This document shows, in pieces, positions 58,438 to 64,000 of a stretch of 64,000 bases of DNA (the stretch's first letter is position 1; each line of letters begins with the position of its first letter). The position numbers and the translations under genes are program-made. The DNA comes from Candidatus Bathyarchaeota archaeon (lineage in GTDB: Archaea > Thermoproteota > Bathyarchaeia > Bathyarchaeales > Bathycorpusculaceae), in contig CAWGYA010000008.1 in the NCBI GenBank assembly GCA_963826715.1, positions 928,001 through 992,000 on the forward strand, read 5' to 3'. Under the pieces are notes generated by a model. The model worked only from the letters and a program-made list of their open reading frames with translations, was not told where the DNA came from and made no database searches.

Positions 58438-58782
58438 ATGCCAAAAACAAAGAAAGTAGGTCCAACTCGAGGATTAGGAGTAAGGTACGGCTCAACAGTA
58501 AGAAAACGATACATTAAAGTGATTACTGAACTCAGAAAACCCCATCGCTGCCCACAATGTGGTTTTGTTCGTGTTAGACGTCAGAGTGTGGGCGTTTGGA
58601 AATGCCGCAAATGTGAATTTACATTTGCAGGCGGAGCGTATACCCCAAGCACTAAACTCGGTACAGTTGCAAGACGTGCAGCGAAGGGCGCAGTGGCTGA
58701 GGAAGCCACAGTTGCCGTTCCAGTTATTGAAGCTGAATCAGATGTTGATGTTGAATCAGCGCCTGAAGAAGAAACCGAGTAA
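58438..58782 (+). CDS. rpl37ae: 50S ribosomal protein L37Ae (eL43) with an acidic C-terminal extension
   Basis: G.RYG...RK, CPQC, GVWKCRKC..TFAGGAY.P. Confidence 0.95.
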   Translation: MPKTKKVGPTRGLGVRYGSTVRKRYIKVITELRKPHRCPQCGFVRVRRQSVGVWKCRKCEFTFAGGAYTPSTKLGTVARRAAKGAVAEEATVAVPVIEAESDVDVESAPEEETE

Positions 58783-58845
58783 GCCTTCTTTCCTTTTTTC
58801 CTTTTTGTTTATAATCTTAAATACTATCTATGTCTATGGAATTCT

Positions 58846-59103
58846 ATGTCAATTTGCGCCAAAGCAACCGTCAACGTCGAATTCGTCACAGAAAAACAAC
58901 TTATAGCAATTGCCTCTGCGATAGCACCTGAAACCCAAATGCTGCCGACAAAACGTGCAAAAGCCAAACTGGAGCGAAACGGTAACCAACTAACTCTGGT
59001 AGTAACGGCCAAAGACACTATAGCTTTGAGAGCGACTTTGAACACTTATTTAGGATGGATAAAATCTACGTTGAACGTTATCCGCGCAGCCGAAAAAGCA
59101 TGA
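58846..59103 (+). CDS. pcc1: KEOPS subunit Pcc1
   Basis: AIAPE, L.L.VTAKD..ALRATLNTYL.WI. Confidence 0.9.
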   Translation: MSICAKATVNVEFVTEKQLIAIASAIAPETQMLPTKRAKAKLERNGNQLTLVVTAKDTIALRATLNTYLGWIKSTLNVIRAAEKA

Positions 59104-59560
59104 TTTTTCTGTATACTTATTAACCATTTAATCCTCGAAGCTAGTTCGTTAGCTAGTTCCCCAAGGTTTTTAGTCTGATTTTATTGTGTTTGCAACAGAG
59201 AATTTTTCGTAACCATCTTGTTTCTTGATCTTTTTACTTCGCCATTAGGGATGCAAAATACAACATGACCCCAAAAACCAAAACCCTTTTCCATTTTTAT
59301 ATTTGTGGGCATACCGAATTGAAATTGGGGGTCGAATAAGCCTTTCTAATTCCCAAATTAGCTATGGTCTAATGAAATTTTACTTTTTTTCCAGGTTGGC
59401 AGAAAGAACTTTAGCTTACAACAATCAAAGCTTCAAGGCATTTAATGTTAAAATTACTGCCAATTTTTTTGAATCAAAATATCTATTTGCATTGTTAATA
59501 CTGAATGAATAAGTTGTCATTTATTATTTTCTAATCGAATTATAGTCAAGATTTTGGTAA

Positions 59561-59613
59561 AGATTAAATAAGTACTAATCACATTTTTTCGCTATATACC
59601 ATTAGTGGTATAT
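59561..59613 (+). promoter_or_regulatory. TATA box followed by a palindromic operator overlapping the predicted TSS
   Basis: AAAG-ATTAAATA at about 59559-59570, then ATATACCA-TTAG-TGGTATAT at 59594-59613, then AGGAG SD. Confidence 0.55.
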
Positions 59614-59642
59614 TATGACTTTAGGAGAAAATAAAAAACCAA

Positions 59643-62270
59643 ATGTTAAACACTAAATCAACAATAACTATTATCGTAGCATCCTTAGTAATTTTGATGG
59701 CAAGTTCAATGATCCTTTTGCCCGTGCCCACCGTTACAGCACACACCCCAGGGTGGGACATCCCAACGTATGCTTTCGTTAGTGCAGTACCAAATCCGAT
59801 CGGCGTCGGTCAAAGAGTCGACATCTTAATGTGGCTTGATAAAGTCCGATCTGGCGCAACAGTCAACAACGAATACAGAATGCACAACTATAACCTAACA
59901 ATTGTCAACTCAGCAGGCGATGTAGTATTACATGAAAACTGGGACACAGTTATCGACACAACCTCTTCACAATACTATGCTTGGATACCTTCAGAGGCAG
60001 GCAACTACACAGTCATGTTCAACTTCGAAGGCTTCACCGTAAATGACTATCCAAGTGCAACCGTAGAACAAGGCGACACTTTCGTTGCAAGTCACGCCTC
60101 AACCCAAATTACAGTCCAGGACGAACAAATTCCTAGCGCAGTAACTAGTTATCCTCTTCCAACAGAATATTGGACTCGCCCCATATACGGCGAGAACACT
60201 GATTGGTGGAGCATATCTTCTAACTGGTTAGGCACAGGTTCTCCAAATCTTGGAGGCTGGTCTTCTTCATCTGCAAAGAACTTAAGGTTCCAACCTGATG
60301 GAGTAGGTCCTCAAACTGCCCACGTCATGTGGACAAAACCACTTGAATCAGGTGGTGTGGTTGGAGGATTAAACAACACAGAAGTTCCTGGAACCTCCTG
60401 GTTTGAAGGCTCTGCATATCTAAACCGCTACACTAATCCAATTATTGTCGCTGGAAAACTCTACTATAACCCAACTGTAGGCTACACAGGAACAGCAAGT
60501 GGACCAACAACATGCGTTGACTTACGCACAGGTGAAGTCCTATGGTCTCGCAGTGATGTTCCAACATTATCTTTTGCATACATTTACGATGTCCAGACTC
60601 CCAATCAACACGGTGTTTACCCCGCAATTCTAGCTACTGCTAACTTTGCTCAATGCTTTGATGCTGATACAGGTGACCCTCTATTCAACGTTACCGGAAT
60701 ATCTGGTGGCGGAGGCGTTGGAGGTACCTTAGTTATGGGACCAACCGGTGAGCACTTACGATACACGATCGTCAACAATGGCAACAATACAAACCCTGAC
60801 TACTATCTATGTCAATGGAACTCAACTAATATGTGGGATTGGACTAACCTTAGACCACCACCAAAAACTACAACATTATCCAATGGACAAACAGCAGTCG
60901 TTGCTAACCAAGGCTCTATGTATGACTGGAACGTCTCTATACCTTGGCGTCTTCAAACAGGCAACCCAACAGTAATCGAAGCTCTATACAATGACGTTAT
61001 GATTTGCAGAAACGGTTCACTACCTATACTAGATACACGATCTGGAAACAGCATACAAACCCCATACACTTACTTTGCAGTAAGTCTCAAGGACGGAAAC
61101 CGCGGACAACTTCTCTGGTCAAAGACCTACACTCCACCAGCAGGGAACGTAACCGTATATAACGGTGGCGCTGACCCCGAATCAGGTGTGTTCCTTGAAG
61201 TTTACAAGGAAACACGACAATGGGTAGGCTACAGCATACACGATGGCTCTAAAGTTTGGGGTCCAACCGAAATGCAAGGTTCATTTGACTACTACGGTCA
61301 ACCATACTTCCCGATCTTGGGCGGACAAATCGCATACGGAAAACTCTACAGCGCAGCATATGCAGGAATAGTCTACTGTTATGACATGAAAACAGGCGAC
61401 CTACTTTGGACTTATGGCAACGGCGGAGAAGGAAACAGCACTAACGCTGGCTTCTATGTTGCATACGGCAATTACCCAACATTCGTAGCAGCAATCGGAG
61501 ACGGCATAGTCTATACAATAACTACCGAACACACTGTCAGCACTCCACTCTATAAAGGTGCCATGACACGCGCAATCAACGCAACTGACGGATCTGAAAT
61601 CTGGAAATTATCCGCATACACTGGATCATTTTCAGTCATCGGATATGGAATTGCAGACGGTTTTGCGACCTTCTTCAATGGCTATGATAACCAAATCTAC
61701 GTAGTAGGCAGAGGCCCAAGCGCACTTACAGTTGAAGCACCAAAGACCGGAATTGACCTAGGTAAATCATTAATAATTAGCGGCGCCGTAACCGACATTT
61801 CATCAGGATCAACACAAGACCAACAGGCAGCACGATTCCCACATGGACTTCCAGTCTCATCTGACGCAAGCATGACCGATTGGATGGGTTATGTTTACCA
61901 ACAAAAACCAATGCCGACCGACTTCACAGGCGTTGACGTTACAATCAACGTTGTTGACGCAAATGGAAACTTCCGACCCATTGGTACCACTACTACTGAC
62001 GCATCTGGCATGTACAGTTTACAATGGAAACCTGACATAGAAGGCAAATATACAGTCATCGCAACCTTCGCTGGCACTAACGGTTACTGGCCATCATATT
62101 CAGAAACAAGCTTTGCAGTTGATCCAGCACCAGCAACACCCGCACCTACAAACCCGCCAACTGACTCAGTCGCTGACATGTACTTTGTTCCTGCAATCGT
62201 TGGTTTGCTTGTTGCGATAATACTTGTAGGCGCAGTACTTGCATTGTTACTAATGCGAAAACGCCCATAA
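59643..62270 (+). CDS. Secreted PQQ-like beta-propeller surface protein with Ig-like domains and a C-terminal TM anchor
   Basis: Signal peptide, PNPIGVGQ, repeated D..TG..LW blades, P/T-rich linker, TM helix plus RKRP. Confidence 0.85.
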   Translation: MLNTKSTITIIVASLVILMASSMILLPVPTVTAHTPGWDIPTYAFVSAVPNPIGVGQRVDILMWLDKVRSGATVNNEYRMHNYNLTIVNSAGDVVLHENWDTVIDTTSSQYYAWIPSEAGNYTVMFNFEGFTVNDYPSATVEQGDTFVASHASTQITVQDEQIPSAVTSYPLPTEYWTRPIYGENTDWWSISSNWLGTGSPNLGGWSSSSAKNLRFQPDGVGPQTAHVMWTKPLESGGVVGGLNNTEVPGTSWFEGSAYLNRYTNPIIVAGKLYYNPTVGYTGTASGPTTCVDLRTGEVLWSRSDVPTLSFAYIYDVQTPNQHGVYPAILATANFAQCFDADTGDPLFNVTGISGGGGVGGTLVMGPTGEHLRYTIVNNGNNTNPDYYLCQWNSTNMWDWTNLRPPPKTTTLSNGQTAVVANQGSMYDWNVSIPWRLQTGNPTVIEALYNDVMICRNGSLPILDTRSGNSIQTPYTYFAVSLKDGNRGQLLWSKTYTPPAGNVTVYNGGADPESGVFLEVYKETRQWVGYSIHDGSKVWGPTEMQGSFDYYGQPYFPILGGQIAYGKLYSAAYAGIVYCYDMKTGDLLWTYGNGGEGNSTNAGFYVAYGNYPTFVAAIGDGIVYTITTEHTVSTPLYKGAMTRAINATDGSEIWKLSAYTGSFSVIGYGIADGFATFFNGYDNQIYVVGRGPSALTVEAPKTGIDLGKSLIISGAVTDISSGSTQDQQAARFPHGLPVSSDASMTDWMGYVYQQKPMPTDFTGVDVTINVVDANGNFRPIGTTTTDASGMYSLQWKPDIEGKYTVIATFAGTNGYWPSYSETSFAVDPAPATPAPTNPPTDSVADMYFVPAIVGLLVAIILVGAVLALLLMRKRP

Positions 62271-62290
62271 ACAAATCAACTACTTCCCTA

Positions 62291-62315
62291 ATCTTTTTTT
62301 TATTTATTTGTTTTC
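62291..62315 (+). terminator. Oligo-T terminator
   Basis: CTTTTTTTTATTTATTTGTTTT after the stop codon. Confidence 0.55.
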
Positions 62316-62833
62316 AAAAATACAGATTTAAGAGCTATTAGATCAAAAGGTGCAAGTTAAAACAATCTGTTTACACTGTGAGATTCAATTATTTCTTCTT
62401 CTTAACATTACTCAGAAATCAAAAAATGAATTATCTCCTCGTTTTCCCAGTTTTGATTCATTGCTTGATTTTTCATTAATTTTTTCTTTGGCACTCAAAC
62501 ATTTGGTGCTAATAAACGCGCTTGTTGGTTGTCAATAATAAGGTTAAAATATATCTCACTCAAGGTGTGCAGTGCCAATATAATATTCTATTAAGTTCAC
62601 TAATTTTGAATCGGAAAACAGTGAAAAATCTATGAGACCTTTAGAGTATTCGTAGTATCATGCATTTTGCAGTTAAGTCGCAAAAAAATTTATAAGAAAA
62701 GGTCACCAGTAAACCCAAAACCATAAGATACTTCAAAATGCAAGAATGCTTGTTTTGTTTAATCGCATAACCAGGCATATGTTAGCATGGTTTTATGGTT
62801 CAAACTATATTAATCGACAAGGATATTGGACAG

Positions 62834-64000
62834 ATGATTTTCCAGAATAAAATCATAGAAGCGGCTATTTTCGACATGGATGGGACCATGTTTGATACTG
62901 AAAGGCTCCGCTGTAAGATGCTAAAACAGGCTTCCAAAGAATTATATGGTCAAGAAATTTCCGATCAGCTTCTCTACGAATCTCTCGGTGTTAGCGCTGT
63001 AACCGCTGAAAAAATAGCGAAGGGTTGCTTCGGTGACGACTATCCTTATAAGAATATAAGAAAACGAGCCGATGAACTGGAAAGGAGGTTCGTGAGAGAA
63101 AACGGGGTTCCAGTGAAGGAAGGTCTTTATAACCTCCTTGAGCGACTCAAGAAAAACGAAGTACTCATCGCCCTAGCTACATCCAGCCGAAGAGAAATCG
63201 CCGAGGAATATCTGGTTAATGCAAAAACACTCAGATTCTTCGACATACTGGTTTGTGGCGAAGACGTGGAAAAAGGAAAACCTAACCCAGACATTTTCTT
63301 AAAAGCAGCAAGCGAACTCAACTGCGAACCCGCTAACTGCTTTATCTTCGAAGACTCCCAAAATGGCCTCTTGGCAGCAAGTGCATCAGGCGGGGTTCCG
63401 ATTTTCATTAAAGACCTTAAAGAACCTGATCCAAAAATTAAAGAACTTGCTTTTAGGTCATACGAAAAAATTGCGGATTTCTTAGATGAACTTATTTTGC
63501 AAATGCCAAAAATGTCTGTCCCCAGCCTAAACGAACATTTTCCACAAAGCATTGATTCTAATATTGTAGGTATACATGGCTTTGGAGCTATTGGGGGCGG
63601 TTATCTTGCACAGATTTTTTCTCATTGGGATGGCTACACACGTCCTTCCCAGATAATCGGAGCCACAAATGACCGAATTAAACGTGAGCTCATTAACGCC
63701 CTGGGGAAATATAGGGTGAAATACGAAAGTCTTGCGTACTTTCAAACGATCACCAATACAACAATCATTGATATGAACGATGAAGCTCAGATGGTCGATA
63801 TGTACCGCAAAGCTAGTATAGTGGGGATATCTCTCCCAGAACAGGCAATCAGGTCTCAATCAAAAACCATCGCCAAGGGGTTGATAGAACGCTATGACTG
63901 CGGTGGGGAACCCCTTACATTGCTGATTCTAATGAACAAAATCAATGCTTCAAAATATGTCAAAGTTCATGTGGAAACTGCCCTCAAAAAGCTGGTAAGT
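62834..64000 (+). CDS. mtlD: Bifunctional HAD phosphatase / mannitol-1-phosphate dehydrogenase (Acinetobacter MtlD type), 3'-partial
   Basis: Manual translation (absent from the ORF track): MIFQNKIIEAAIFDMDGTMFDTERLR...ATSSRR.IAEEYL...GKPNPDIFLKAA...FEDS.NG...VGIHGFGAIGGGYLAQIFSHWDGYTRP...LPEQAI. Alternative in-frame ATG at 62795. Confidence 0.88.
   Translation, partial: MIFQNKIIEAAIFDMDGTMFDTERLRCKMLKQASKELYGQEISDQLLYESLGVSAVTAEKIAKGCFGDDYPYKNIRKRADELERRFVRENGVPVKEGLYNLLERLKKNEVLIALATSSRREIAEEYLVNAKTLRFFDILVCGEDVEKGKPNPDIFLKAASELNCEPANCFIFEDSQNGLLAASASGGVPIFIKDLKEPDPKIKELAFRSYEKIADFLDELILQMPKMSVPSLNEHFPQSIDSNIVGIHGFGAIGGGYLAQIFSHWDGYTRPSQIIGATNDRIKRELINALGKYRVKYESLAYFQTITNTTIIDMNDEAQMVDMYRKASIVGISLPEQAIRSQSKTIAKGLIERYDCGGEPLTLLILMNKINASKYVKVHVETALKKLVS

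Follow-up and report, generated by a model that had tools for sequence, protein, structure and literature searches.

The window analyzed in this study is a 64,000-nucleotide stretch of the genome of a Candidatus Bathyarchaeota archaeon (G000:C8:928001-992000), and it ends within mtlD, a gene for which there is good support, from homology, in inferring that it encodes a bifunctional MtlD, i.e., an enzyme converting fructose 6-phosphate (F6P) into mannitol via mannitol 1-phosphate (M1P). The gene lies between an archaeal exosome cluster (proteasome-alpha, Rrp4/41/42-like, L37Ae, and Pcc1) and the S13-S4-S11-RpoD-L18e-L13 cluster, and the features of the locus are collected in Table 1.

Table 1. 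Features of the mtlD locus, in window coordinates
Feature	Positions	Strand	Basis
mtlD, part within the window	62834..64000	+	open reading frame; NF046057; match to 7OCN; start inferred
HAD-IA phosphatase domain, residues 21-199	62855..63391	+	Pfam HAD_2; predicted M1P phosphatase
Catalytic residues of the HAD-IA domain: D27/D29, T129/S130, K162, E186/D187	62855..63391	+	
Start of the M1P dehydrogenase domain (Rossmann part, GxGxxG at residues 262-267)	63563..64000	+	
Helix-loop-helix insert (~429-501), KxxxxNxxH (544-552), Arg-rich motif (620-638)	beyond the window end	+	residue alignment; model
AT-rich spacer upstream of mtlD	62271..62833	.	sequence reading
Gene for an 875-residue secreted protein	59643..62270	+	weak Pfam PQQ_2, CarboxypepD_reg, Big_3_5
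L37Ae and Pcc1 genes	58438..59103	+	Ribosomal_L37ae E 6e-26; Pcc1 E 1e-12; synteny

Gene structure and family membership of MtlD

The plus-strand frame that opens at the ATG at position 62795 is not closed at position 64000 and covers 402 residues within the window. When followed in the genome sequence, it extends 1,071 bases farther to a stop at G000:C8:993071 (L001:3777; position 65071 in window numbering), so that the full frame comprises 758 residues without an internal stop. The original prediction, made from the letters of the window, had described an open frame in which a HAD phosphatase is fused to a Rossmann domain, and this description is borne out by the open reading frame, HAD_2, and NF046057; all four motif strings that it quoted are present in the translation and align with the same strings of Acinetobacter baumannii MtlD (7OCN), and the rest of the gene, retrieved as it had advised, has an intact 3′ part and is not truncated. 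The true start of the gene is probably Met14 (ATG 62834), giving a product of 745 residues, because the public gene call for an identical protein (P0002) has this length, because alignments with homologs and with the NCBIfam model start only at residues 12-15, and because residues 1-11 are disordered in the predicted structure, with a predicted local distance difference test score (pLDDT) below 50. The spacer upstream of the gene contains a TATA-like sequence, TTTATAAG, preceded by an A-run, at approximately 62682-62696.

Against the NCBIfam equivalog model NF046057 (bifunc_MtlD), whose curated cutoff is 800 bits, the full-length protein scored 977.6 bits, with model positions 1-683 matched to residues 15-710. 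The portion within the window, which scores lower since it is cut off, reached 647 bits over positions 1-387 of 683, and this score, together with the HAD_2 match of the same portion (E 6e-31), excludes a chance match. In the full protein, Pfam HAD_2 covers residues 25-199 (E 1e-30) and Mannitol_dh_C residues 537-667 (E 9e-18); the match to the Rossmann family Mannitol_dh, at 23.7 bits, falls under its 27-bit cutoff. The best solved relative is A. baumannii MtlD (AbMtlD; 7OCN and sister entries), which matched residues 14-673 with 614 bits (E 3e-183). An AlphaFold model built with 48 relatives had a mean pLDDT of 88.2 and a predicted TM-score (pTM) of 0.83, and the first 15 matches that it found in the PDB were all AbMtlD chains, the best being 7ocr_A (E 5e-68, TM 0.81/0.89, 724 columns, 42% identity). 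These were followed by monofunctional M1P dehydrogenases (M1PDHs) and β-phosphoglucomutase-type HAD proteins, each of which covers one half of the model. Assignment to the β-phosphoglucomutase or hexitol phosphatase subfamilies of HAD proteins was rejected; the scores against TIGR02009 (108.8 bits, cutoff 153.35), TIGR01990 (81.0, cutoff 189.4), and NF008087 (79.4, cutoff 191) reflect related folds only.

The predicted protein shares with AbMtlD the full-length fold and the order of its parts, which are a HAD phosphatase, a 75-residue linker, and an M1PDH with a helix-loop-helix (HLH) insert. Functional residues were taken from the AbMtlD structure paper (PMC9168451), to the extent of its available text, and were followed through an alignment of 99 sequences, of which 25 belong to the archaeal clade described below, 26 to Bacillota, 29 to other Pseudomonadota, and 19 to Acinetobacter. 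In AbMtlD numbering, D16, D18, T118, S119, K151, E175, and D176 of the phosphatase and N374, K527, N532, H535, D602, R606, R609, R613, K614, R620, and the GxGxxG motif of the dehydrogenase are conserved in 25/25 sequences of the archaeal clade, and the same HAD, N374, KxxxxNxxH, DxxxR, Arg-rich, and GxGxxG residues are kept in all 74 bacterial sequences. The HAD equivalents in the archaeal protein include D27, D29, T129, K162, E186, and D187, and those in the dehydrogenase domain, likewise conserved in 25/25, are G262/G264/G267, N381, K544/N549/H552, D620/R624, and R627/R631/K632/E637/R638, the last group constituting the phosphate-binding motif RxxxRKxxxx(E/D)R. The seven cap residues contacting M1P (E25, R28, L32, L53, Y74, R78, and S120) are all identical in the protein from the window; in the archaeal clade, E25, R28, Y74, and R78 are found in 25/25, L32 and L53 in 23/25, and S120 in 24/25 sequences. 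Thus, the protein lacks none of the residues that the available text names as necessary for dephosphorylating M1P and reducing F6P. The HLH insert, which is required for the activity of AbMtlD and absent from other long-chain dehydrogenases (PMC9168451, available part), is predicted as helices 429-468 and 486-501 between the strands 424-426 and 506-510, with a loop (468-483) of low confidence; the HLH region spans 120-126 residues in archaea versus 109-110 in Acinetobacter, i.e., ∼15 more. Besides this longer insert and an overall identity of 41-46%, the archaeal copy differs from AbMtlD in having Ser at the position of W531 and Asn and Asp at those of R281 and N282, and its host is an anaerobic archaeon. 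AbMtlD is activated by salt and forms a salt-driven dimer.

Monofunctional M1P 5-dehydrogenases, such as the MtlDs of Escherichia coli, Shigella, and Staphylococcus aureus (3H2Z and 5JNM), have the same dehydrogenase fold (TM 0.82 to 3H2Z) and the same motifs of polyol-specific long-chain dehydrogenases, but they possess neither a fused phosphatase nor an HLH insert and act in mannitol catabolism after uptake by the phosphotransferase system. The archaeal MtlD scored only 43-67 bits against their models, whose cutoffs range from 269 to 719.

Genomic setting and occurrence in Bathyarchaeia

The host genome, 2.64 Mb in 8 contigs, is rated 96% complete and 3% contaminated, and mtlD is located on a contig of 1.29 Mb, at a distance of 303 kb from its end. 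S13 is located directly downstream of mtlD in 11 of the 21 other archaeal genomes with the gene, and wherever the upstream flank is covered in these 11 genomes, it contains L37Ae or exosome genes; among the remaining carriers, one shows the upstream side only, five have another context, and four have contigs that are too short. Among 751 long open reading frames of the genome, the GC content of mtlD (41.1%, median 43.8%) ranks at the 25th percentile and that of its third codon positions (GC3; 41.2%, median 41.5%) at the 48th, and 99% of these frames deviate more than mtlD from the mean codon use of the genome, a figure helped by the length of the gene. No signal of recent transfer was found in the GC, GC3, or codon use of mtlD. 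In addition, short-read contigs from four soil-metagenome DNA runs, all from one study that may include the assembly's own source, bridge with at least 99% identity each of the three junctions at the end of the 875-residue protein gene, at the start of mtlD, and between mtlD and S13; stretches of the gene left uncovered in a single run carry no meaning. The integrity of the contig, for which the original prediction had demanded a check, is thus confirmed by synteny in 11 genomes, by host-like composition, and by the bridging contigs, and the contig is not chimeric.

The L37Ae/Pcc1 pair, at the end of the exosome gene cluster, forms the conserved left border of a variable site. The gap between exosome/L37Ae/Pcc1 and S13 (window 58846-62794; L103-L107) is a hot spot of variable genes in the genus, being empty or occupied by mtlD, by the 875-residue protein gene, by both, by a small HAD gene, or by none of the genes of the locus. 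The 875-residue protein, predicted to be secreted, starts with a signal-like N-terminus, resembles β-propeller and Ig-like domains in part, and terminates in a hydrophobic membrane anchor whose last residues are basic. In none of the other mtlD loci was its gene detected between L37Ae and mtlD, while a 46%-identical homolog adjoins S13 in G345, a genome without mtlD; it is a second variable gene at the site and is not functionally tied to mtlD. In the genome G349, where mtlD is not at the S13 site, a gene for a 122-residue PQ-loop/MtN3 protein of the SemiSWEET type, i.e., a putative sugar transporter, immediately precedes mtlD on the same strand (L013:3786-4154, minus strand). This arrangement was seen once, and the product could be a mannitol exporter.

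The occurrence of mtlD was counted in genome samples, in which a gene is to be regarded as not found rather than absent. With the family model, 15 of 401 genomes of the class, including the host, were found to carry mtlD, one of them split over two contig ends, and all belong to one family of Bathyarchaeia. Apart from the host, the carriers make up 14 of the 103 sampled genomes of that family (12/40 in the genus and 2/12 in a second genus), and the gene was found in 0/297 sampled genomes of other families of the class. An earlier draw of relatives gave 6/24 in the genus and 0/16 in other families of the order, and a phylum-wide sample gave 0/400 other genomes, 375 of which are outside the family. 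The site was examined in five near-complete genomes of the genus without mtlD: two run from Pcc1 straight to S13, one has only a homolog of the 875-residue protein gene, one has a small unrelated HAD gene, and one has none of the genes of the locus within 1.5 kb upstream of S13. In a tree of the flanking S13 and S4, two mtlD subgroups are recovered, and genomes without mtlD occupy both basal positions and positions interspersed with carriers; one such genome is the sister of the host genome (support 93/92). One archaeal copy (L033:6001-8241; OY969706.1), the closest relative among the matches listed, contains two frame switches ∼420 nucleotides apart, with 78% identity over the first 271 residues and 62-63% after the first switch; either this copy is decaying at the conserved site, or the switches are errors of long-read assembly. 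Taken together, the site comparison, the S13 and S4 tree, and the frame-switched copy indicate an old gain at the site followed by vertical descent and several losses, probably with some movement within the family.

Phylogeny of the bifunctional enzyme

In the protein database, the best matches to the archaeal MtlD were 63-77% identical and mostly unnamed metagenome proteins, and Clostridium proteins came next at ∼57%. The seven proteins with an organism name among the 63-77% matches comprise six from Bathyarchaeia/Bathyarchaeota, three of which are already called bifunctional MtlD by NCBI, and one from Betaproteobacteria. In the collection of named genomes, 317 stretches from species-representative genomes encode a relative of MtlD; among the best 80 of the 317, 14 are archaeal (labeled Bathyarchaeia, Bathyarchaeota, “Thermoproteota archaeon,” or “uncultured archaeon”), and the rest come from Bacillota and Pseudomonadota. 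Several archaeal records are labeled “Bathy6” by their depositors, and genomes ranked in the same genus as the host carry MtlD cores identical to these records. The nearest bacterial relatives, within the same best 80, are from Clostridia/Lachnospiraceae with up to 62% identity. The MtlDs of Acinetobacter are 41-46% identical to the archaeal protein, with the exception of a split copy (L091) whose best segment reaches 50%.

A maximum-likelihood tree was constructed from 99 full-length sequences with IQ-TREE (LG+G4, quick search) and rooted at the midpoint, leaving out two copies of the window gene, six partial or broken sequences, nine duplicate loci, and three duplicate proteins. In this tree, 21 archaeal-labeled sequences and four unnamed or mislabeled ones form one clade with an SH-aLRT support of 100. 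The clade joins a group of 12 Clostridia/Lachnospiraceae sequences with a support of 100 and four more Clostridium sequences with 99, and the Pseudomonadota and the long branch of Acinetobacter, the most distant of all, are placed outside this archaea/Clostridia group. One of the mislabeled sequences, P0039, assigned to a “Betaproteobacteria bacterium” on a 6-kb contig, lies inside the archaeal clade next to the sequence from the window and, judging from this position, probably represents a mis-binned archaeal contig. The homologs of the sister group, e.g., those of [Clostridium] fimetarium, C. kluyveri, C. pasteurianum, and Lacrimispora, share with the archaeal copies the Ser at the position of W531 and the longer HLH region. 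At the position of K420 of AbMtlD (residue 426 here), the two groups differ, with Lys or Arg in 25/25 archaeal sequences and mostly Ala or Ser in Bacillota (Lys in 4/26); this change may be cofactor-related and may have arisen after the transfer.

The tree supports the view that archaeal mtlD is an old acquisition from a Clostridia-like bacterium. The proposed direction, from bacteria to archaea, is based on the wide bacterial and narrow archaeal distribution of the gene and by the shared Ser. The original prediction had proposed horizontal acquisition of an “Acinetobacter-type” enzyme by an archaeon, and the acquisition agrees with the nesting of the archaeal clade among Clostridia. It was not a one-off event, however, but an old gain shared by a clade in one family and followed by losses, and the “Acinetobacter-type” label holds for the enzyme family but not for the origin, Clostridia/Lachnospiraceae being the nearest relatives and Acinetobacter the most distant branch.

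Possible roles of the archaeal MtlD

The following sequence of events can be proposed. An ancestor in one Bathyarchaeia family, in the genus that includes the “Bathy6” metagenome-assembled genomes, would have taken the gene from a Clostridia-like bacterium; the gene would then have settled between the exosome cluster and the S13 operon, taken on the composition of the host, and persisted in some species while disappearing from others. In the enzyme, the C-terminal dehydrogenase domain would reduce F6P to M1P with NAD(P)H, and the N-terminal HAD domain would dephosphorylate M1P into mannitol, pulling the reaction forward and making the conversion irreversible within one protein. F6P should be available because the host genome encodes GlmS (706 bits, above the cutoff), an isomerase of the phosphoglucose/phosphomannose isomerase type (bact-PGI_C), and a homolog of transaldolase/F6P aldolase (TAL_FSA); the same genome, which is 96% complete, yielded neither class V fructose-1,6-bisphosphate aldolase/phosphatase (PF01950) nor canonical phosphoglucose isomerase (PF00342). 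A second Mannitol_dh_C gene was not found in the host genome, suggesting that mtlD is not part of a catabolic route. In soil, mannitol would most likely serve as a compatible solute that protects the cells from osmotic stress or desiccation. This role is favored because the studied enzymes have it, AbMtlD producing the solute on which Acinetobacter chiefly relies under salt stress (PMC6291793 and PMC9168451, in their available parts); because the sequencing runs containing at least one-third of the sampled words of mtlD are soil metagenomes, with no RNA run among the matches listed; and because neither an OtsA-type trehalose synthase nor a BCCT transporter was found in the 96%-complete genome. 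The reading as a whole, that is, a working bifunctional MtlD derived from a Clostridia-like donor and likely used to make a compatible solute in soil, seems to us reasonably probable.

Several points weigh against this reading. The activity is predicted by homology with studied enzymes that are 42-46% identical to the archaeal MtlD, and the physiological role, whether solute or redox sink, is putative. With midpoint rooting of the mtlD tree, the direction of transfer has to be read from the distribution of the gene, and the tree of the flanking proteins, built on a short alignment of 343 columns, matches that of mtlD only partly. The gene was not found in 28 of the 40 sampled genus members, including near-complete genomes, which means that it is dispensable, and nothing observed here ties the carriers to drier or saltier sites. 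The neighborhood was rejected as a functional clue because neighbors differ among lineages: the host has the exosome and S13 genes, the L016/L027 group has citrate synthase together with an ABC transporter of the FecCD type, and in [Clostridium] fimetarium the gene is accompanied by MTHFR, flavodoxin, and NUDIX. As for the cofactor, T280 and K420 of the NADPH site are retained as T291 (Thr in 24/25 archaeal sequences) and K426 (Lys or Arg in 25/25), but the replacements of R281 by Asn and N282 by Asp in the loop for the 2′-phosphate leave the cofactor not callable from sequence. The last point concerns the gate residue W531, to which the available text of PMC9168451 ascribes conservation in bifunctional MtlD and a possible part in selecting F6P. 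The position is occupied by Ser548 in the archaeal MtlD, and Ser is found in 25/25 archaeal and 26/26 Bacillota sequences, while the residue in Pseudomonadota is Trp or Leu (Leu in 12/29 of those other than Acinetobacter). From this spread of Ser and Leu, Trp marks the Acinetobacter/Pseudomonas branch and is not a defining feature of the family. According to Table 1 of the same paper, the W531A mutation lowered the Km of AbMtlD for F6P from 60.6 to 1.3 mM, corresponding to an ∼50-fold better affinity, and by analogy the archaeal/clostridial Ser subtype may bind F6P far better than AbMtlD.

The main rival explanation accepts the same enzyme and reaction but gives them another purpose, namely redox balance, in which surplus NAD(P)H would be disposed of and mannitol excreted or stored. 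The closest bacterial relatives are strictly anaerobic fermenters (Clostridium, Lacrimispora, Butyrivibrio, and Sedimentibacter), not salt-stressed aerobes, and they have the Ser gate in common with the archaeal copies; a Km in the range of that of W531A would suit ordinary F6P levels without stress, and the SemiSWEET-type gene directly upstream of mtlD in one archaeal genome (L013) would fit export. Such a sink would be expensive, however, since every mannitol formed consumes a hexose phosphate together with the phosphate bond, and no linked exporter was seen in the other mtlD loci examined. The retention of T280 and of a basic residue at position 420 favors NADPH, the anabolic cofactor, and the clostridial members are known here from sequence alone. 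We therefore regard redox disposal as an unlikely, albeit serious, explanation.

It is much less probable that the archaeal/clostridial branch has shifted its specificity to another sugar phosphate and yields a different polyol. Such a shift would agree with the replacement of the proposed F6P selector by Ser in all 51 archaeal and Bacillota sequences and with the elongated HLH region, but all F6P/M1P contacts of the dehydrogenase site and all M1P-contacting cap residues are kept, the score exceeds the NF046057 equivalog cutoff, and Trp is not family-wide even in Pseudomonadota, given the Leu in 12/29. Hardly credible is the view that the gene represents bacterial contamination, mis-assembly, or a nonfunctional relic in decay. 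In favor of it are the bacterial hosts of all other members of the family, the Betaproteobacteria label of one close relative (P0039), and the frame switches in one archaeal copy (L033); against these stand the position of mtlD between archaeal core genes deep inside a large contig, the recurrence of its flanks in other genomes, the host-matching composition, the contigs bridging the junctions, and an intact frame. All catalytic residues are kept across 25 sequences that are 63-77% identical, which argues for purifying selection. This last explanation is refuted as far as computation allows, and a functional MtlD that serves in solute synthesis is still the reading we prefer.

The family proves to be far wider than published, being encoded by 317 species-representative genomes from Pseudomonadota, Clostridia, and one archaeal family. 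In its available text, PMC6291793 describes bifunctional MtlD as “restricted to the genus” Acinetobacter, and that of PMC9168451 names three bacterial species; the 317-genome spread contradicts both descriptions, relatives being present also in Clostridium, Lacrimispora, Butyrivibrio, Methylobacillus, Steroidobacter, Pseudomonas, Oxalicibacterium, and others (L037-L102). No paper was found that reports fused MtlD or mannitol synthesis in Bathyarchaeia or any other archaeon, although Sand et al. 2015 (Environ Microbiol 17:711), with which the study of the family began, or the PNAS supplement may survey homologs more widely. The original prediction was therefore right that such a route is not established in the archaeal literature that was found, yet NCBI already labels some archaeal copies; the present result is at the level of annotation, already given by the NCBI pipeline, and is useful rather than surprising. 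As far as the available parts of the papers go, the known archaeal cases are of other kinds. Haloarcula hispanica degrades mannitol by a catabolic route with an unrelated medium-chain mannitol dehydrogenase and free fructose, without a fused synthase (PMC11519228), and in metagenome-assembled genomes of marine group II archaea, a monofunctional mtlD, i.e., an M1P 5-dehydrogenase alone and not a fused synthase, was noted as a possible osmolyte gene without enzymology (PMC10480650).

The archaeal mtlD offers a one-gene, testable candidate for the synthesis of a polyol osmolyte in an uncultured and abundant archaeal group, and a clean case of a bacterial gene that was fixed between two highly conserved archaeal operons and then repeatedly lost. 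Its Ser gate is, moreover, a natural counterpart of the W531A mutant. A bolder proposal, which we put forward tentatively and consider doubtful in its full extent, is that soil Bathyarchaeia make mannitol de novo via the captured enzyme, that retention of the gene marks tolerance to drying or salt, and that the Ser gate defines a high-affinity, stress-independent subtype. If this were true, Archaea would have their first demonstrated pathway to a polyol compatible solute, the Ser-gate subtype would contrast with the Acinetobacter enzyme, which is activated by salt and binds F6P very weakly, and mtlD would have helped a mostly sediment-dwelling class to live in soils.

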